From Escherichia coli (GTDB lineage Bacteria > Pseudomonadota > Gammaproteobacteria > Enterobacterales > Enterobacteriaceae): a DNA stretch of 64,000 bases. The DNA lies in NCBI RefSeq assembly GCF_044647545.1, contig NZ_CP172818.1. The stretch is one strand, 5' to 3'. The first letter of the stretch is position 1. Each line of letters begins with the position of its first letter. This document shows, piece after piece, positions 51,460-58,624 of this stretch. The notes beneath the pieces are model-generated. The model was given only the letters and a program-made list of their open reading frames with translations. It made no database searches and was not told the DNA's origin. A program made the translations under genes and the position numbers.

Positions 51460-51473
51460 TTGATATGGATTAA
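51460..51473 (+). promoter_or_regulatory. candidate FNR-type site (TTGAT-N4-ATTAA) upstream of ynfE
   Basis: ttgatatggattaa about 100 bp upstream of the ynfE start; one mismatch to TTGAT-N4-ATCAA. Confidence 0.35.
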
Positions 51474-51572
51474 TAATTCTTAACCCAAAATAGGTAGACT
51501 CCCTCTATTGTTAGCGCGCTAAATATTCAATATATAAACTTTTATATAACGATAAAGAACAGGGAGTGAGTT

Positions 51573-53999
51573 ATGTCCAAAAATGAACAAATGGTGGGCA
51601 TCAGCCGCAGAACACTCGTTAAATCTACCGCGATAGGTTCTCTGGCGCTGGCTGCAGGTGGTTTTTCTTTACCGTTCACCCTGCGCAGTGCAGCGGCAGC
51701 GGTACAACAGGCCAGCGAGAAAGTGGTCTGGGGTGCCTGTTCCGTCAACTGTGGTAGCCGCTGTGCACTTCGTCTGCATGTTAAAGATAATGAAGTGACC
51801 TGGGTGGAAACTGACAACACCGGCAACGACGAGTATGGCAATCATCAAGTACGTGCCTGTTTGCGCGGTCGCTCCATCCGTCGGCGTATTAATCATCCCG
51901 ATCGCTTGAATTACCCAATGAAACGCGTGGGCAAACGCGGCGAAGGCAAATTCGAACGGATTAGCTGGGATGAAGCCCTGGATACTATCGCCAGTAGCCT
52001 GAAAAAAACCGTCGAACAATATGGCAATGAGGCTGTATATATTCAGTACTCTTCAGGGATCGTTGGCGGCAATATGACCCGCTCTTCACCATCAGCCTCG
52101 GCGGTCAAACGCCTGATGAACTGCTACGGCGGTTCACTCAATCAGTATGGCTCCTACAGCACCGCGCAAATTTCCTGTGCCATGCCCTACACCTACGGCA
52201 GTAATGATGGCAACAGCACCACGGATATTGAAAACAGCAAGCTGGTCGTGATGTTTGGTAACAACCCGGCAGAAACCCGCATGAGCGGCGGTGGCATCAC
52301 TTATCTTCTTGAAAAAGCGCGCGAGAAATCGAACGCAAAAATGATTGTTATCGATCCGCGATATACCGATACGGCTGCTGGTCGTGAAGACGAATGGCTA
52401 CCTATTCGCCCGGGCACCGATGCCGCGCTGGTTGCGGGTATTGCCTGGGTATTGATTAACGAAAATCTCGTTGATCAACCTTTTCTCGATAAATACTGCG
52501 TCGGCTATGACGAAAAAACCTTACCCGCAGATGCACCAATAAATGGTCACTATAAAGCCTATATTCTTGGTGAAGGTGATGATAAAACAGCGAAAACGCC
52601 GCAGTGGGCTTCGCAAATTACCGGTATCCCGGTGGACCGTATCATCAAGCTGGCGCGTGAAATTGGCACAGCAAAACCCGCTTATATCTGCCAGGGCTGG
52701 GGGCCGCAACGCCAGGCAAACGGTGAGCTGACCGCACGCGCTATTGCTATGTTGCCTATTTTGACGGGCAATGTCGGCATCAGCGGCGGAAATAGTGGCG
52801 CGCGTGAATCGACCTATACCATTACCATAGAACGCCTGCCGGTGCTGGATAATCCGGTCAAAACGTCAATCTCCTGCTTCAGCTGGACGGATGCTATCGA
52901 TCATGGCCCGCAAATGACGGCAATCCGCGACGGCGTCCGGGGCAAAGATAAACTGGATGTGCCCATTAAGTTCATCTGGAACTACGCGGGAAATACCCTG
53001 GTTAATCAGCATTCTGACATCAACAAAACGCATGAAATTCTGCAGGACGAATCGAAATGCGAAATGATTGTGGTCATCGAAAACTTTATGACCTCATCGG
53101 CAAAATATGCCGACATTCTGCTGCCAGACCTGATGACCGTTGAGCAGGAAGATATTATTCCTAACGATTACGCCGGTAACATGGGATATCTCATTTTCCT
53201 TCAGCCAGTCACCAGCGAAAAATTCGAACGCAAACCGATTTACTGGATCCTGAGTGAGGTCGCGAAACGTCTTGGACCTGACGTCTATCAAAAGTTCACT
53301 GAAGGTCGCACTCAGGAACAATGGTTACAACATCTGTACGCCAAAATGCTTGCCAAAGATCCGGCGTTACCGTCTTACGACGAACTGAAAAAAATGGGTA
53401 TCTATAAGCGTAAAGATCCCAATGGTCATTTTGTCGCCTACAAAGCATTTCGTGACGACCCCGAGGCAAATCCACTTAAAACGCCTTCCGGTAAGATCGA
53501 AATTTACTCCAGCAAGCTGGCGGAAATTGCCCGTACCTGGGAACTGGAAAAAGATGAAGTGATAAGCCCACTGCCGGTTTATGCCTCAACCTTTGAAGGC
53601 TGGGACTCCCCTGAACGTAGTACCTTTCCACTGCAACTGTTTGGTTTCCATTACAAATCCCGTACTCACTCGACCTACGGCAATATTGATGTCCTGAAGG
53701 CAGCCTGCCGTCAGGAAGTGTGGATCAACCCTATAGATGCACAGAAACGTGGGATTGCCAACGGCGATATGGTGCGGGTGTTTAACCATCGTGGCGAAGT
53801 TCGGCTACCAGCCAAAGTGACACCACGCATTCTCCCTGGGGTTAGCGCTATGGGCCAGGGAGCCTGGCACGAGGCCAATATGTCTGGCGATAAAATCGAC
53901 CATGGCGGCTGTGTGAATACGCTAACCACTCTGCGCCCCTCACCACTGGCGAAGGGAAACCCGCAGCACACTAATCTGGTCGAGATCGAAAAAATATAA
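51573..53999 (+). CDS. ynfE: Tat-exported molybdopterin oxidoreductase YnfE (DmsA paralogue; selenate reductase catalytic subunit), 808 aa
   Basis: Twin-arginine signal ISRRTLVK, N-terminal Cys cluster C-x2-C-x3-C, DmsA-like throughout. Confidence 0.95.
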   Translation: MSKNEQMVGISRRTLVKSTAIGSLALAAGGFSLPFTLRSAAAAVQQASEKVVWGACSVNCGSRCALRLHVKDNEVTWVETDNTGNDEYGNHQVRACLRGRSIRRRINHPDRLNYPMKRVGKRGEGKFERISWDEALDTIASSLKKTVEQYGNEAVYIQYSSGIVGGNMTRSSPSASAVKRLMNCYGGSLNQYGSYSTAQISCAMPYTYGSNDGNSTTDIENSKLVVMFGNNPAETRMSGGGITYLLEKAREKSNAKMIVIDPRYTDTAAGREDEWLPIRPGTDAALVAGIAWVLINENLVDQPFLDKYCVGYDEKTLPADAPINGHYKAYILGEGDDKTAKTPQWASQITGIPVDRIIKLAREIGTAKPAYICQGWGPQRQANGELTARAIAMLPILTGNVGISGGNSGARESTYTITIERLPVLDNPVKTSISCFSWTDAIDHGPQMTAIRDGVRGKDKLDVPIKFIWNYAGNTLVNQHSDINKTHEILQDESKCEMIVVIENFMTSSAKYADILLPDLMTVEQEDIIPNDYAGNMGYLIFLQPVTSEKFERKPIYWILSEVAKRLGPDVYQKFTEGRTQEQWLQHLYAKMLAKDPALPSYDELKKMGIYKRKDPNGHFVAYKAFRDDPEANPLKTPSGKIEIYSSKLAEIARTWELEKDEVISPLPVYASTFEGWDSPERSTFPLQLFGFHYKSRTHSTYGNIDVLKAACRQEVWINPIDAQKRGIANGDMVRVFNHRGEVRLPAKVTPRILPGVSAMGQGAWHEANMSGDKIDHGGCVNTLTTLRPSPLAKGNPQHTNLVEIEKI

Positions 54000-54056
54000 C
54001 CCTCTACAACCATAAATTCTGGCATGACATTTTGTTTGAAAAGCAATAAGTGAGTA

Positions 54057-56483
54057 ATGATGAAAATCCATACCACAGAGGCGCTCATGAAGGCTGAAAT
54101 CAGCCGTAGAAGTCTGATGAAAACCTCCGCACTTGGCAGTCTTGCGCTGGCAAGCAGTGCTTTCACTCTGCCATTTTCCCAAATGGTCCGAGCGGCAGAG
54201 ACACCGGTAGAAGAGAAAGCGGTCTGGAGTTCCTGCACCGTTAACTGCGGGAGCCGCTGTCTGTTACGTTTGCATGTGAAAGATGACACCGTGTACTGGG
54301 TGGAGTCTGATACGACAGGAGACGACGTTTACGGTAATCATCAGGTTCGGGCATGTTTACGCGGGCGCTCTATCCGCCGACGGATGAATCATCCTGACAG
54401 GTTGAAATATCCCATGAAGCGCGTCGGCAAGCGCGGTGAAGGTAAATTTGAACGGATAAGTTGGGATGAAGCCCTGGATACCATCAGTGATAATCTTCGG
54501 CGGATCCTTAAAGATTACGGCAATGAGGCTGTACATGTCCTGTACGGAACAGGCGTAGATGGCGGAAACATCACCAACTCGAACGTCCCGTACCGTCTGA
54601 TGAACTCATGCGGTGGTTTTCTCAGTCGCTATGGTAGCTACAGTACCGCACAGATCAGTGCCGCGATGAGTTATATGTTCGGTGCCAATGATGGCAACAG
54701 CCCGGATGATATCGCCAATACGAAACTGGTCGTTATGTTCGGAAATAACCCGGCAGAAACCCGGATGAGCGGCGGTGGTGTCACTTACTACGTCGAGCAA
54801 GCCCGCGAACGTTCAAATGCACGCATGATCGTCATCGATCCACGTTATAACGACACTGCTGCCGGGCGTGAAGATGAATGGCTGCCCATTCGCCCTGGCA
54901 CCGATGGCGCACTGGCCTGTGCGATTGCCTGGGTACTGATTACTGAAAACATGGTCGATCAGCCATTTCTCGACAAATATTGTGTTGGTTACGATGAAAA
55001 AACGCTGCCCGCCAACGCACCTCGTAACGCGCATTATAAAGCCTATATTCTGGGCGAAGGGCCTGACGGCATAGCTAAAACGCCGGAATGGGCAGCAAAA
55101 ATCACCAGCATCCCGGCAGAAAAAATTATCCAGTTGGCACGAGAGATCGGTTCAGCAAAACCGGCTTATATTTGTCAGGGTTGGGGGCCACAACGACATT
55201 CCAACGGCGAGCAAACATCCCGCGCTATTGCCATGCTTTCCGTTCTCACCGGTAACGTCGGCATAAACGGCGGCAACTCAGGTGTACGCGAAGGTAGCTG
55301 GGATCTGGGAGTAGAATGGTTCCCGATGCTCGAGAATCCTGTTAAAACGCAGATTTCCGTCTTTACATGGACAGATGCCATCGACCATGGTACGGAAATG
55401 ACCGCGACCCGTGATGGTGTTCGTGGAAAAGAAAAACTGGATGTCCCCATCAAGTTTTTATGGTGCTACGCCAGTAACACATTGATCAATCAACATGGCG
55501 ACATCAATCACACCCATGAGGTGCTTCAGGATGACAGCAAGTGCGAGATGATTGTTGGCATTGACCACTTCATGACTGCCTCGGCTAAGTATTGCGATAT
55601 CCTGTTGCCCGACCTGATGCCAACAGAGCAAGAAGACCTTATCTCTCATGAATCTGCAGGGAATATGGGATATGTGATCCTCGCCCAACCCGCAACCTCA
55701 GCAAAATTTGAACGCAAACCCATCTACTGGATTCTGAGTGAAGTCGCCAAACGCTTAGGACCAGACGTTTATCAAACCTTTACTGAAGGTCGCAGTCAGC
55801 ATGAATGGATCAAATATCTCCATGCGAAAACGAAGGAACGTAACCCTGAGATGCCCGACTACGAGGAGATGAAAACGACCGGGATCTTTAAGAAAAAATG
55901 CCCGGAAGAACACTACGTCGCTTTCCGCGCATTCCGTGAAGATCCACAGGCAAACCCGTTGAAAACACCTTCGGGGAAAATCGAAATTTATTCTGAACGA
56001 CTGGCGACGATTGCGGATACCTGGGAATTGAAAAAAGATGAAATTATTCATCCCCTTCCTGCATATACCCCAGGTTTTGATGGCTGGGACGATCCCCTGC
56101 GGAAAACCTATCCACTGCAGTTAACGGGCTTCCACTACAAAGCGCGTACCCACTCCAGCTACGGCAATATTGATGTGTTACAGCAGGCCTGCCCACAAGA
56201 GGTGTGGATCAACCCTATTGATGCTCAGGCACGCGGTATCCGTCATGGCGATACCGTGCGGGTATTTAACACTAATGGAGAAATGCTGATTGCCGCAAAA
56301 GTGACTCCGCGTATTCTGCCTGGCGTTACCGCCATCGGGCAAGGTGCGTGGCTTAAAGCGGATATGTTTGGTGACCGGGTCGATCACGGCGGCAGTATCA
56401 ATATTCTGACCTCTCACCGCCCTTCACCGCTGGCAAAGGGAAACCCGTCGCACAGCAATCTCGTCCAGATCGAAAAGGTTTAA
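54057..56483 (+). CDS. ynfF: Tat-exported molybdopterin oxidoreductase YnfF (DmsA paralogue), 808-aa ORF
   Basis: Twin-arginine signal ISRRSLMK; close tandem paralogue of ynfE. Confidence 0.95.
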   Translation: MMKIHTTEALMKAEISRRSLMKTSALGSLALASSAFTLPFSQMVRAAETPVEEKAVWSSCTVNCGSRCLLRLHVKDDTVYWVESDTTGDDVYGNHQVRACLRGRSIRRRMNHPDRLKYPMKRVGKRGEGKFERISWDEALDTISDNLRRILKDYGNEAVHVLYGTGVDGGNITNSNVPYRLMNSCGGFLSRYGSYSTAQISAAMSYMFGANDGNSPDDIANTKLVVMFGNNPAETRMSGGGVTYYVEQARERSNARMIVIDPRYNDTAAGREDEWLPIRPGTDGALACAIAWVLITENMVDQPFLDKYCVGYDEKTLPANAPRNAHYKAYILGEGPDGIAKTPEWAAKITSIPAEKIIQLAREIGSAKPAYICQGWGPQRHSNGEQTSRAIAMLSVLTGNVGINGGNSGVREGSWDLGVEWFPMLENPVKTQISVFTWTDAIDHGTEMTATRDGVRGKEKLDVPIKFLWCYASNTLINQHGDINHTHEVLQDDSKCEMIVGIDHFMTASAKYCDILLPDLMPTEQEDLISHESAGNMGYVILAQPATSAKFERKPIYWILSEVAKRLGPDVYQTFTEGRSQHEWIKYLHAKTKERNPEMPDYEEMKTTGIFKKKCPEEHYVAFRAFREDPQANPLKTPSGKIEIYSERLATIADTWELKKDEIIHPLPAYTPGFDGWDDPLRKTYPLQLTGFHYKARTHSSYGNIDVLQQACPQEVWINPIDAQARGIRHGDTVRVFNTNGEMLIAAKVTPRILPGVTAIGQGAWLKADMFGDRVDHGGSINILTSHRPSPLAKGNPSHSNLVQIEKV

Positions 56484-56493
56484 GGAGTAGCCC

Positions 56494-57111
56494 ATGACCA
56501 CACAATATGGATTTTTTATCGATTCCAGCCGCTGTACTGGCTGTAAAACCTGCGAACTGGCGTGCAAAGATTTTAAAGATCTTGGCCCGGAAGTCAGTTT
56601 CCGCCGTATTTATGAATATGCTGGCGGCGACTGGCAGGAAGATAATGGCGTCTGGCACCAGAACGTGTTCGCTTATTATCTCTCCATCTCCTGTAACCAT
56701 TGCGATGACCCCGCATGTACAAAAGTCTGCCCCAGCGGCGCAATGCATAAGCGTGAAGATGGCTTTGTGGTGGTTGATGAAGATGTTTGTATCGGCTGCC
56801 GCTACTGCCACATGGCTTGTCCGTACGGCGCACCACAGTACAATGCTGAAAAAGGGCACATGACGAAGTGCGATGGTTGTTATTCGCGCGTCGCCGAGGG
56901 GAAACAACCCATATGTGTCGAATCCTGCCCGCTGCGTGCACTTGAATTCGGTCCAATTGAAGAGCTGCGCCAGAAGCACGGCACTCTGGCTGCCGTTGCG
57001 CCACTGCCGCGCGCGCATTTCACAAAACCCAATATCGTTATCAAACCTAACGCCAACAGCCGCCCGACCGGCGATACCACTGGTTATCTGGCTAATCCGG
57101 AGGAAGTGTAA
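56494..57111 (+). CDS. ynfG: 4Fe-4S ferredoxin-type subunit YnfG (DmsB paralogue), 205 aa
   Basis: Four Cys clusters (CTGCKTCELAC, CNHCDDPACTKVC, CIGCRYCHMAC, CDGC...). Confidence 0.95.
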   Translation: MTTQYGFFIDSSRCTGCKTCELACKDFKDLGPEVSFRRIYEYAGGDWQEDNGVWHQNVFAYYLSISCNHCDDPACTKVCPSGAMHKREDGFVVVDEDVCIGCRYCHMACPYGAPQYNAEKGHMTKCDGCYSRVAEGKQPICVESCPLRALEFGPIEELRQKHGTLAAVAPLPRAHFTKPNIVIKPNANSRPTGDTTGYLANPEEV

Positions 57112-57112
57112 A

Positions 57113-57967
57113 ATGGGAAATGGATGGCATGAATGGCCACTGGTTATCTTTACCGTATTGGGTCAATGCGTAGTAGGCGCGCTGATTGTTAGCGGAATTG
57201 GCTGGTTCGCCGCCAAAAATGACGCAGACCGTCAGCGTATTGTCCGTGGCATGTTTTTCCTCTGGCTGTTGATGGGCATCGGGTTTATTGCCTCTGTCAT
57301 GCACCTGGGGTCGCCACTGCGGGCGTTTAACTCGCTGAATCGAATCGGAGATTCTGGTCTGAGTAACGAGATTGCTGCCGGTTCCATATTTTTTGCCGTT
57401 GGCGGATTATGGTGGCTGGTGGCAGTCATCGGTAAAATGCCGCAAGCGTTGGGGAAACTCTGGTTACTTGTCAGCATGGCGCTCGGCGTCATTTTCGTCT
57501 GGATGATGACCTGCGTGTATCAAATCGACACAGTGCCAACCTGGCATAACGGTTACACTACGCTGGCTTTCTTCCTGACAGTATTGTTGAGCGGTCCAAT
57601 ACTTGCTGCCGCAATTCTGCGAGCAGCCCGCGTTACATTTAATACCACACCATTTGCCATCATTAGCGTTCTGGCGCTGATCGCTTGTGCCGGGGTGATT
57701 GTGCTGCAAGGTTTGTCTCTGGCGTCTATTCACTCATCCGTACAACAAGCCAGCGCACTGGTACCAGATTACGCCTCCTTACAGGTCTGGCGTGTGGTAT
57801 TGTTATGCGCAGGTCTAGGATGCTGGCTTTGTCCGCTCATTCGTCGCCGTGAACCTCACGTTGCCGGACTTGTTCTGGGGCTAATCCTCATACTTGGCGG
57901 TGAGATGATCGGGCGTGTGCTCTTTTATGGCCTGCACATGACGGTAGGAATGGCTATTGCAGGTTAA
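57113..57967 (+). CDS. ynfH: membrane anchor subunit YnfH (DmsC paralogue), 284 aa
   Basis: MGNGWHEWPLVIFTVLGQ..., about 8 TM segments. Confidence 0.9.
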   Translation: MGNGWHEWPLVIFTVLGQCVVGALIVSGIGWFAAKNDADRQRIVRGMFFLWLLMGIGFIASVMHLGSPLRAFNSLNRIGDSGLSNEIAAGSIFFAVGGLWWLVAVIGKMPQALGKLWLLVSMALGVIFVWMMTCVYQIDTVPTWHNGYTTLAFFLTVLLSGPILAAAILRAARVTFNTTPFAIISVLALIACAGVIVLQGLSLASIHSSVQQASALVPDYASLQVWRVVLLCAGLGCWLCPLIRRREPHVAGLVLGLILILGGEMIGRVLFYGLHMTVGMAIAG

Positions 57968-58009: not shown

Positions 58010-58624
58010 ATGACCCATTTTTCACAGCAAGATAATTTTTCTGTCGCGGCGCGCGTGTTGGGCGCGCTGTTTTATTACGCTCCAGAGAGTGCGGAAGCCG
58101 CACCTCTGGTTGCGGTACTCACCAATGACAGCTGGGAAACTCAGTGGCCTCTACCAGAAGCGTCATTAGCGCCGCTGGTGACTGCTTTTCAGACACAGAG
58201 TGAAGAGACTCACGCCCAGGCCTGGCAGCGTTTGTTTGTCGGCCCGTGGGCACTGCCGTCACCGCCGTGGGGATCGGTCTGGCTGGATCGCGAATCTGTG
58301 CTGTTTGGCGATTCAACATTGGCACTTCGTCAGTGGATGCGCGAGAAAGGCATTCAGTTTGAAATGCAGCAAAACGAACCGGAAGATCATTTTGGTTCAC
58401 TGCTGTTGATGGCTGCGTGGTTGGCGGAGAATGGTCGCCAGACAGAATGCGAAGAATTGCTGGCATGGCACCTTTTTCCGTGGTCAACACGTTTTCTTGA
58501 CGTTTTTATCGAAAAAGCAGAACACCCTTTCTACCGTGCACTGGGTGAACTCGCTCGCTTAACGCTGGCGCAATGGCAATCACAACTGTTGATTCCTGTC
58601 GCGGTTAAACCGCTGTTTCGATAG
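58010..58624 (+). CDS. dmsD: Tat proofreading chaperone DmsD, 204 aa
   Basis: MTHFSQQDNFSVAARVLGALFYYAPESAEAAPLVA... Confidence 0.95.
   Translation: MTHFSQQDNFSVAARVLGALFYYAPESAEAAPLVAVLTNDSWETQWPLPEASLAPLVTAFQTQSEETHAQAWQRLFVGPWALPSPPWGSVWLDRESVLFGDSTLALRQWMREKGIQFEMQQNEPEDHFGSLLLMAAWLAENGRQTECEELLAWHLFPWSTRFLDVFIEKAEHPFYRALGELARLTLAQWQSQLLIPVAVKPLFR

Follow-up and report, generated by a model that had tools for sequence, protein, structure and literature searches.

The adjacent molybdoenzyme genes ynfE and ynfF of Escherichia coli belong to the known ynfEFGH-dmsD operon and are, very probably, ancient paralogues that evolve independently of each other, with only rare in-register fusion between the two copies. 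The operon was analysed in a window of 64,000 nucleotides, i.e., the whole stretch of E. coli DNA under study, and the coordinates of its features are given in Table 1.

The ynfEFGH-dmsD operon and its products

The locus is the known E. coli selenate reductase operon, and its confirmation is no new result. Over 8 kb, the sequence shows 100% identity to several E. coli chromosomes annotated with ynfE, ynfF, ynfG, ynfH, and dmsD, and a single strand carries, in order, two catalytic genes, a gene for a DmsB-type iron-sulfur subunit, one for a DmsC-type anchor (assigned by annotation only), and one for the DmsD chaperone. The preliminary description, made from the sequence, had pointed to two adjacent 808-codon open reading frames (ORFs) at 51573-56483, which is exactly the span given by the ORF list, and to twin-arginine signals and an N-terminal cysteine cluster, both of which a motif search located in the two proteins. 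Its placing of ynfG, ynfH, and dmsD downstream agrees with the annotation of a 100% identical RefSeq record and, for ynfG and dmsD, with NCBIfam models, while its designation of a DMSO-reductase-like selenate reductase locus is borne out by the NCBIfam models for YnfE and YnfF and by the annotation, the activity itself being known from the literature. In RefSeq, the start of ynfF corresponds to window position 54060, one codon downstream of the ORF start, giving a protein of 807 amino acids.

Family models separate the two catalytic subunits. YnfE scores 1797.4 bits with NF041885 (selenate_YnfE, cutoff 1675), for which YnfF falls below the cutoff at 1481.4 bits, and YnfF scores 1773.6 bits with NF041884 (selenate_YnfF, cutoff 1650), for which YnfE falls below the cutoff at 1476.7 bits. 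Both proteins carry the two features of DmsA/YnfE-type Tat-exported molybdoenzyme catalytic subunits (TIGR02166), a Tat motif and a four-cysteine group. The Tat motif, defined as S/T-R-R-x-hydrophobic-hydrophobic-K near the N-terminus, is SRRTLVK at residue 11 of YnfE and SRRSLMK at residue 16 of YnfF. The cysteine group, C-X3-C-X3-C-X31-C, is found at residue 56 of YnfE and residue 60 of YnfF, and by its motif it would bind the FS0 [4Fe-4S] cluster in both proteins. Downstream, the ynfG product scores 264.8 bits with TIGR02951 (DMSO_dmsB, cutoff 214) and the dmsD product 346 bits with NF008632 (cutoff 162), and no NCBIfam model matched YnfH.

In E. coli K-12 and Salmonella enterica, ynfEFGH-dmsD reportedly encodes a selenate/tellurate reductase, as Lubitz and Weiner (in 2003) and Guymer et al. 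(in 2009) are said to have described. An E. coli ynfEF deletion mutant is unable to reduce selenate and is complemented by srnA, the single ynfE-type gene of Enterobacter cloacae (PMC12724226). The Salmonella enzyme depends mainly on YnfE for catalysis, with YnfF as a minor catalytic subunit, and DmsD binds the signal peptides of both (PMC5203670). It may thus be proposed that YnfE and YnfF each form a ~90-kDa catalytic subunit of the DMSO-reductase family, whose signal peptide would be bound by DmsD and which, following published work, would be exported in folded form by Tat together with YnfG. The exported subunit and YnfG would dock on the membrane anchor YnfH, and electrons from menaquinol would reduce selenate (and tellurate) at an active site facing the periplasm, with selenate reduction probably due mostly to YnfE and little to YnfF.

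Transcription of the operon most likely starts from an FNR-dependent promoter that includes the FNR-like palindrome upstream of ynfE. This site, TTGATATGGATTAA, which the preliminary description had also proposed as a candidate, has one mismatch to TTGAT-N4-ATCAA, and seven other taxa (E. whittamii, C. amalonaticus, C. portucalensis, Salmonella arizonae, Enterobacter hormaechei, Kosakonia, and Kluyvera) have the same or a nearly identical site at the equivalent position, -107 to -114. A match to the consensus carries little weight by itself, as the whole window has 63 matches at two mismatches against 45 expected. A promoter scan found no sigma-70 consensus promoter upstream of ynfE, which is expected for an activator-dependent promoter. 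The FNR/NarL architecture of the ynfEFGH promoter was reportedly worked out by Xu, Busby and Browning in 2009. FNR regulation of ynfEFGH is also cited in PMC10845959. A scan of the spacer between ynfE and ynfF found neither promoter-like nor terminator-like sites, consistent with co-transcription of the two genes.

Table 1 Features of the ynfEFGH-dmsD locus and of its deletion and hybrid alleles, in window coordinates.
Feature	Position	Strand	Description and basis
Candidate FNR site TTGATATGGATTAA	51460..51473	.	FNR-consensus-like palindrome, 113 nt upstream of ynfE ATG; pattern search
ynfE	51573..53999	+	808 codons, ATG start; ORF list, RefSeq annotation of identical record, NCBIfam, Tat motif and Cys group
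Class B crossover, ynfE side	52263..52279	+	NNPAETR motif; JCC-EE 7, FELIX_MS533; breakpoint mapping
Class A crossover, ynfE side	52719..52729	+	ECONIH4, 0H15-0H26, CAVP776; breakpoint mapping
ynfE-ynfF spacer	54000..54056	+	57 nt; sequence and promoter/terminator scan
ynfF	54057..56483	+	808-codon ORF, ATG start; ORF list, RefSeq annotation, NCBIfam
Class B crossover, ynfF side	54747..54763	+	Breakpoint mapping
ynfF segment deleted in ST131-type allele	54774..55353	+	580 bp; BLAST of U12A against window, junction census, EC958 annotation
Class A crossover, ynfF side	55203..55213	+	Breakpoint mapping
Second ynfF segment deleted in ST131-type allele	56128..56401	+	274 bp; BLAST of U12A against window, EC958 annotation
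ynfG	56494..57111	+	Four-cluster iron-sulfur electron-transfer subunit, DmsB paralogue; annotation and TIGR02951
ynfH	57113..57967	+	Membrane anchor/quinol-oxidising subunit, DmsC paralogue; RefSeq annotation only
dmsD	58010..58624	+	Tat proofreading chaperone for DmsA, YnfE, and YnfF signal peptides; annotation and NF008632

Divergence and age of the two catalytic genes

YnfE and YnfF are identical at 568 of 801 aligned residues (71%, E = 0 by BLASTP), and the identity of the genes is 69.5% overall and 47% at third codon positions, with a pS of 0.71 and a pN of 0.19. Their longest exact match, 20 nt, is at chance level (permutation expectation 20.2 ± 3.6), and permutation of codon columns reproduces both the longest exact run (P = 0.55) and the windowed identities (P = 0.08). 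No gene-conversion tracts between ynfE and ynfF were found, either by permutation tests or by comparing within-genome with cross-genome identity, and one borderline 90-nt window (3.6 SD) is not significant across the ~640 windows. Nor is there concerted evolution in the four genera compared, as the nucleotide identity between ynfE and ynfF within a genome (0.68-0.70) equals that between genomes. Efficient RecA recombination in E. coli is said to require at least ~23-27 bp of identity, a figure attributed to work by Shen and Huang in 1986. With 69.5% identity and exact blocks of no more than 20 nt, the two genes are therefore very poorly suited to homologous recombination of the RecA type, and they are too diverged to be a recombination hotspot. 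The preliminary description had called the two copies closely related, which is true of the proteins but not of the DNA, and the nucleotide alignment that it had proposed as a check on recombination thus returns the low identity that speaks against its own suggestion.

The separation of the paralogues is also seen in a neighbour-joining tree on Kimura distances (200 bootstraps), where YnfE and YnfF form separate clades in four genera, each with 100% bootstrap. YnfF is sister to all Enterobacterales YnfE, the node uniting them having 99% bootstrap, and YnfE is monophyletic with Budvicia included (100%). At 99 diagnostic columns, the DmsA-type outgroup shares 37 states with YnfE and 26 with YnfF, which indicates derived changes on both stems. 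The 26 columns, at which nearly all YnfE have the E state, place changes on the YnfE stem, after the split from YnfF and before the radiation of YnfE. From this tree and the diagnostic residues, which a long ynfF branch could distort, we infer that ynfE and ynfF are ancient tandem paralogues and not a recent duplication, each probably evolving independently under purifying selection. Two further possibilities were considered and ruled out: the single-copy ynfE-type genes of other genera are not old mosaics of the two types, being E-type throughout the diagnostic columns, and in the Serratia, Rahnella, and Budvicia loci the second gene is of the DmsA type and not a ynfF orthologue.

It could be argued instead that ynfF arose as a recent tandem duplicate in the common ancestor of Escherichia, Salmonella, and Citrobacter and then changed fast, so that its placement outside all YnfE is due to long-branch attraction and ynfF was at no time present in the single-copy genera. 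Most sampled Enterobacteriaceae indeed have a single ynfE-type gene directly before ynfG, such single-copy genes lack blocks of YnfF-type residues, and the YnfF stem is long. In addition, pS is already ~0.72 between E. coli and Salmonella orthologues, and with synonymous sites saturated at this distance the duplication is not datable by dS. However, the high support for YnfE monophyly and for the node joining it to YnfF, together with the 26 columns that place changes on the YnfE stem, argues against a recent origin, and extant YnfF does not evolve faster than YnfE (E. coli-Salmonella pN of 0.051 and 0.075, respectively). A recent duplication is hence considered unlikely, and an ancient one is preferred.

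Hybrid genes and decay of the locus in E. coli

Fusions between the two genes were sought in 5,426 complete E. coli genomes using a synthetic query composed of the 5' 1000 nt of ynfE and the 3' 1000 nt of ynfF. In ten genomes (0.18%), one 2,427-bp ynfE'-'ynfF gene replaces both copies, and the annotation lists ynfD, the hybrid, and ynfG in that order. Each hybrid results from an exact in-register deletion of 2,484 bp, i.e., one repeat period, that preserves an intact frame of 808 codons, and each has a single clean switch, past which no ynfE-type site occurs and the sequence is 99.8-100% identical to K-12 ynfF. Breakpoints were mapped by direct ungapped comparison; apparent clusters of ynfF-type sites at columns 133-158 and 527-548 of an alignment made with mafft --add were false, as they adjoin three indels.

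The ten hybrids represent two independent events, which lie in different flanking-allele backgrounds. In class A, the switch occurs at one shared base, following an 8-nt identity (AACGGCGA) in K-12-type alleles, and none of the 386 informative sites past the switch is ynfE-type. Eight complete assemblies from three laboratories (NIH, Alberta, and Virginia) carry this hybrid byte for byte, and its exact protein (WP_104457354.1) is encoded on 68 contigs across NCBI, ENA, and Logan. Class B (protein WP_256683566.1), present in two assemblies, switches within a run common to both genes that is 17 nt long in the window alleles and 14 nt in K-12-type alleles. Recombination between the copies thus does happen, but it is rare and seen only as the loss of a copy. 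The hybrids would stem from rare unequal exchange that starts from short islands of identity within conserved motifs, with each exchange removing exactly one period and leaving one intact hybrid before ynfG, possibly by homeologous crossover, single-strand annealing, or template switching. Of the four deletions found at the ynfE-ynfF junction, two are in register, while an estimated ~1 in 2,400 would be expected for random endpoints, and in-register products may be overrepresented through selection that favours an intact enzyme. That the hybrids are assembly artefacts in which two paralogues collapsed is hardly credible, since assemblers can merge tandem paralogues at high identity but would not be expected to do so at 70%, and such an error is at odds with a clean switch and open frame in every hybrid, with the recurrence of class A across laboratories and contigs, and with the two class B assemblies.

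Other candidates did not add to the in-register events. The deletion in AZ 191, considered as a third fusion on the basis of 78% coverage, is out of register, joining ynfE nt 834 to ynfF nt 282 in a background with the ynfF-deletion allele, and that in CPE35 is likewise an out-of-register deletion, of ~1.17 kb. Apart from AZ 191, no E. coli genome was found in which the 3' end of ynfE runs into ynfG or the promoter directly precedes the 5' end of ynfF. Copies of ynfEF labelled as plasmid-borne are mislabelled chromosomes or chromosome fragments. Outside E. coli, Escherichia whittamii carries only one gene, in which the final 28 nt, like the spacer that follows, are of the ynfF type; this looks like a third, species-level in-register case.

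The preliminary description had suggested that the duplicated genes serve as a substrate for recombination and for changes in copy number. In its strong form, this would make the pair an active site of homologous recombination and gene conversion, with a copy number that varies between strains. The in-register fusions and the single gene of E. whittamii fit this, and in E. coli few metabolic genes are pseudogenised as often as ynfE and ynfF (PMC13322260). However, most of the pseudogenisation is unrelated to paralogy. In 546 of the 5,426 genomes, ynfF is a deletion pseudogene of the ST131 type, whose internal deletions lack microhomology; an integrase-bearing element interrupts ynfE in 149 genomes (2.7%), and IS elements and out-of-register deletions account for other disruptions of the two genes. 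Homology-independent decay is thus far commoner than fusion. Moreover, none of the 5,289 genomes carrying a ynfE-ynfF junction has a tandem amplification, and the reciprocal triplication was not seen. Together with the low identity, exact blocks below the reported RecA minimum, the absence of conversion tracts, and a mere two fusion events, this largely refutes the pair as a site of frequent exchange, which we judge improbable. The original suggestion was accordingly overstated but not empty, as rare, loss-only fusions do occur.

Relation to known systems and implications

The closest relatives of the locus are the K-12 and Salmonella operons, which have the same genes in the same order. K-12 ynfE and ynfF are 97.4% and 98.7% identical in nucleotides to those of the window, and the 71% identity between YnfE and YnfF is also the figure reported for Salmonella (PMC5203670). 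Nothing of substance differs, except that the window has a less common allele, with 216 of 5,323 matching records at least 99% identical to it. E. coli DmsABC resembles the Ynf system in its three-subunit architecture, Tat export, and dependence on DmsD; YnfE and YnfF are ~67-68% identical to DmsA, and YnfG and K-12 DmsB share 94% of amino acids and 81.6% of nucleotides. Unlike ynfEFGH, however, dmsABC has one catalytic gene, another chromosomal site, and another substrate, and both window proteins (1344 and 1317 bits) miss the 1600-bit cutoff of the DmsA-specific NCBIfam model. A further relative is the FNR-regulated srnABCD operon of Enterobacter cloacae, where SrnA is the ynfE orthologue and is 86.2% identical to E. 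coli YnfE (PMC12724226). There, the single catalytic gene directly precedes the ynfG orthologue, whereas E. coli has the additional ynfF in between.

Hybrid genes arising from unequal exchange between diverged tandem paralogues are a general phenomenon. The ynf hybrids conform to it in the loss of one period, a single crossover in a conserved motif, and an intact chimeric ORF. They differ in that the parents are only ~70% identical and the junction identities span 1-17 nt, well below the reported requirement of classical RecA-dependent exchange, and in that the triplication is not seen. As period-exact hybrids between 70% identical neighbours in nature, they contribute one modest observation on how little homology may suffice to guide an exchange. 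For the question of recombination at this locus, the answer is now quantitative: the copies are too diverged for a hotspot, and amplification is absent from more than 5,000 finished genomes.

For E. coli as a species, ~10% of finished genomes are without a functional ynfF, and the deletion allele is shared with the ST131 reference strain EC958. As a practical caution, work on 'ynfF' or on selenate or tellurate reduction should check the allele of the strain used. Finally, it could be speculated, as a tentative idea that we hold at somewhat less than even chances, that hybrids with the N-terminal 231-385 residues of YnfE followed by YnfF may be active and kept by selection, and that the same homeologous, period-exact deletion may be a recurrent route of ynfF loss, in E. 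whittamii and perhaps in many single-copy Enterobacteriaceae. If so, exchange at 70% identity nucleated on 1-17 nt would be a genuine, though rare, route in wild E. coli, and the two hybrids would serve as natural domain swaps with which to locate the basis of efficient selenate reduction by YnfE and poor reduction by YnfF.

Locus identity, function and promoter

The ynfEFGH-dmsD locus had been correctly identified in the preliminary description, and the operon is already known and thoroughly characterised. The span named for its two 808-codon ORFs, 51573-56483, is exact in the ORF listing, with both on the plus strand and starting with ATG. Their assignment as ynfE and ynfF also holds, as each ORF passes only its own model of the YnfE/YnfF NCBIfam pair: ORF1 scores 1797 bits with the YnfE model (cutoff 1675) but falls short with the YnfF model, and ORF2 scores 1774 bits with the YnfF model (cutoff 1650) but falls short with the YnfE model. 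Both stay below the DmsA-specific cutoff. Matching records annotate the order ynfE, ynfF, ynfG, ynfH, dmsD and then clcB, as described, with model passes for YnfG and DmsD and annotation only for ynfH. In a nucleotide database search, the 8-kb ynfEF region matched several E. coli chromosomes at 100% identity and most of 5,424 others at 95-99%. Aligned end to end, YnfE and YnfF share 568 of 801 residues (71%), with three small indels, all within the first ~180 residues, and the twin-arginine signals (SRRTLVK in YnfE, SRRSLMK in YnfF) and N-terminal Cys cluster (C-X3-C-X3-C-X31-C) expected of them are found in both.

Features of the ynfEF locus and of comparison loci; positions without an L-number refer to the window
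Feature	Position	Strand	Remark
ynfE (ORF1)	51573-53999	+	808 codons, ATG start; ORF listing
ynfF (ORF2)	54057-56483	+	808 codons, ATG start; RefSeq start one codon later
ynfG	56494-57111		Annotation of identical records; passes own NCBIfam model
ynfH	57113-57967		Annotation alone; no NCBIfam model matched
dmsD	58010-58624		Annotation of identical records; passes own NCBIfam model
ynfF remnant	L002 4988-6557
ynfF remnant	L094 7263-8832
Element inside ynfE	L003 2395-4000
IS1-associated deletion	L004 4288-5326		MB07152
Out-of-register deletion	L005 5505-9243		CPE35
Out-of-register deletion	L091 3001-5126		AZ 191
Single gene before ynfG	L006 6001-8440		E. whittamii
dmsB	L093 3415-4032		K-12
Truncated rspA	L086, L087, L088 1-73		Class A hybrid genomes

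The proposed function, a DMSO-reductase-like selenate reductase, is supported by published work. The Salmonella operon codes for a selenate reductase bound to the membrane, with YnfE as the chief catalytic subunit and a small contribution of YnfF, DmsD binds the signal peptides of DmsA, YnfE and YnfF, and YnfE and YnfF share 71% identity, the same as the pair in the window (PMC5203670). An E. coli ynfEF deletion mutant shows no selenate reduction, which is restored by srnA, the single ynfE-type gene of E. cloacae (PMC12724226).

A candidate FNR site had also been placed upstream of ynfE, and TTGATATGGATTAA at 51460-51473, with one mismatch, is the sole FNR-like site found by pattern search in the ynfD-ynfE spacer. 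The pattern alone is weak evidence, since the whole window holds 63 matches at up to two mismatches against 45 expected. The case is strengthened by conservation of its position across genera: E. whittamii, two Citrobacter species, Salmonella arizonae, Enterobacter, Kosakonia and Kluyvera each have an identical or almost identical site 107-114 nt upstream of the ATG. Scans found no sigma-70 consensus promoter upstream of ynfE and neither promoter nor terminator in the 57-nt ynfE-ynfF spacer, which fits an activator-dependent promoter and co-transcription of ynfE and ynfF. We infer that the promoter is of class II, its -10 element being TAGACT (51495-51500). PMC10845959 cites FNR control of ynfEFGH, and FNR regulation has been described for the orthologous operon of E. 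cloacae (PMC12724226).

Age and divergence of ynfE and ynfF

Concerted evolution was tested using 80 related loci fetched from other species, among which those of Salmonella (subspecies arizonae and diarizonae), Citrobacter amalonaticus and Pseudocitrobacter faecalis contain ynfE as well as ynfF. Identity between ynfE and ynfF within a genome (0.68-0.70) equals that across genomes, e.g., 0.692 for E. coli ynfE and Salmonella ynfF. Neighbour joining with 200 bootstraps places all YnfE orthologues, from that of Budvicia to that of E. coli, in a single clade (100%) and the YnfF proteins in their own (100%), as sister of the entire YnfE clade (99%). At 99 diagnostic columns, where four YnfE are alike, four YnfF are alike and the groups differ, single-copy ynfE-type genes are E-type from end to end. 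A DmsA-type outgroup has 37 states in common with E and 26 with F, implying derived changes on both stems, and those on the E stem are older than the YnfE radiation. From the sequences, we conclude that the pair is probably ancient and that its copies evolve independently of each other. Alternatively, the duplication may be recent and ynfF may have changed in an early burst, for which the distance-based tree and saturated dS leave room; however, pN between E. coli and Salmonella is lower for YnfF (0.051) than for YnfE (0.075), and YnfF thus evolves no faster than YnfE today.

Most Enterobacteriaceae sampled carry one ynfE-type gene immediately 5' of ynfG, an arrangement shared by the published srnABCD, whereas E. 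coli has both genes. In Serratia, Rahnella, Ewingella and Budvicia (comparison loci L068, L072, L075, L077, L078, L081, L082, L083 and L085), the gene following the ynfE-type gene was considered as YnfF and rejected, being DmsA-type and sharing about 81% of its residues with DmsA of E. coli. Different lineages therefore have different tandem partners of ynfE.

Low nucleotide identity, named beforehand as what would refute the claim of recombination between the copies, is what pairwise alignment gives: 69.5% overall in a codon-aware alignment of 803 codons, with 79% at first, 83% at second and 47% at third codon positions and Nei-Gojobori values of 0.71 for pS (dS about 2.2, saturated) and 0.19 for pN. 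Against 2,000 shuffles of the codon columns, the longest exact match of 20 nt (51966-51985 = 54462-54481; expected 20.2 +/- 3.6, P = 0.55), the best 150-nt window (0.82, P = 0.08) and the best 50-codon third-position window (0.60, P = 0.97) are unremarkable, and these measures thus reveal no gene-conversion tracts between ynfE and ynfF. A stretch of about 90 nt encoding FERKPIYWILSEVAKRLGPDVYQ (~53215-53310 / ~55700-55795) has 0.83 identity within E. coli and 0.72 across species, a borderline excess (3.6 SD among about 640 overlapping windows) that could reflect a very old short conversion or a common codon preference.

The adjacent ynfG and the unlinked K-12 dmsB, both 618 nt, share 81.6% DNA and 94.2% protein identity and an exact run of 38 nt (~56608-56645). 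Given this identity and run, they would be a better homology substrate than ynfE/ynfF; their third-position identity of 52% speaks against recent conversion. The 38-nt run also accounts for the second place that megablast gave the 8-kb query in each genome.

Decay and fusion of the pair in E. coli

Across 5,426 complete E. coli genomes, the ynfE-ynfF junction (53750-54350) is present in 5,289 and single-copy in all except one, where megablast puts the extra copy on a 'plasmid' record. Plasmid carriage of ynfEF was rejected, as the PLSDB records are mislabelled chromosomes or chromosome fragments (NZ_CP134663.1, NZ_CP141089.1, NZ_OL790696.1 and others; 4.8-4.9 Mb or 250-420-kb pieces). Thus, no tandem amplification was found among the junction-bearing genomes.

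The pair decays more commonly by internal deletions, an integrase-bearing element and IS truncations than by fusion. In 546 genomes (10.1%), ynfF survives as a frameshifted 1,570-bp remnant. Two internal deletions, 54774-55353 (580 bp) and 56128-56401 (274 bp), produced it, and neither junction shows microhomology. The frameshifted remnant of EC958, the O25b:H4-ST131 reference strain and the only one of the 546 assigned here to ST131, has the same length; ynfF expression in EC958 was reported in 2025 (PMC12096835). In 149 genomes (2.7%), an integrase-bearing element lies inside ynfE (~52968/52969), the 3' part resuming at gene nt 1397, with a tyrosine integrase gene about 300 bp away. IS1- and IS30-associated truncations also occur, and in MB07152 an IS1-associated deletion removes ynfE and most of ynfF. 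These classes agree with a pangenome study listing ynfE and ynfF among the E. coli metabolic genes most frequently pseudogenised (PMC13322260).

Fusions were sought with a synthetic query consisting of the 5'-terminal 1000 nt of ynfE and the 3'-terminal 1000 nt of ynfF, pieces that join in one place only with at least 1.4 kb missing between them. Ten genomes gave 100% coverage within exactly 2,427 bp, each with one intact 808-codon gene between ynfD and ynfG and, by direct comparison with the K-12 alleles, one clean switch. Class A (ECONIH4, six 0H strains and CAVP776; all identical, protein WP_104457354.1) is ynfE to gene nt 1155 and ynfF thereafter (52728 / 55212), the crossover being a single shared base just after an 8-nt identity. 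Class B (JCC-EE 7 and FELIX_MS533; WP_256683566.1) switches within a 14-17-nt identical run encoding NNPAETR (52263-52279 / 54747-54763). On the 3' side of the switch, class A differs from K-12 ynfF at three positions and class B at none. Because the flanking alleles differ, the classes are independent events. Assembly artefacts were rejected, as the exact proteins occur on 68 contigs from several archives (class A) and on two (class B). All class A genomes also have an rspA annotated as truncated, its C-terminus missing, a few kb 5' of the operon, consistent with a common clonal background.

Only AZ 191 among the E. coli genomes has the ynfE 3' end joined to ynfG or the promoter joined to the ynfF 5' end. 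It was rejected as an in-register fusion: its 1,931-bp deletion, in an ST131-type ynfF allele background, runs out of register from ynfE nt 834 to ynfF nt 282. Likewise, CPE35 has an out-of-register deletion of ~1.17 kb (ynfE nt 1497 to ynfF nt ~184). Two of four junction deletions thus removed exactly one 2,484-bp repeat period, against about 1 in 2,400 expected for random endpoints, which suggests that 70% similarity guides alignment or that selection for an intact enzyme is strong.

A third such loss, period-exact and fixed in the species, is probable in E. whittamii, whose single 808-codon gene is ynfE-type to nt ~2399 (88% identical in nucleotides to that of E. coli). The final 28 nt of the gene and the 10 nt between it and ynfG match E. 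coli ynfF-ynfG. An ancestral single-gene state is possible, as its 3' end would look similar; in-register loss is the simplest reading since E. coli and Salmonella have the orthologous two-gene state.

The earlier view of the duplication as a substrate for recombination and copy-number change was therefore overstated, given 69.5% identity, no conversion and no amplification, and stands for the period-exact fusions in 10 genomes: their divergence is too great for homologous exchange to be routine, yet such rare fusions exist. The hybrid enzymes may be functional, and homeologous in-register deletion may be the recurrent route of ynfF loss; if true, this would be a modest curiosity and no surprise to specialists.
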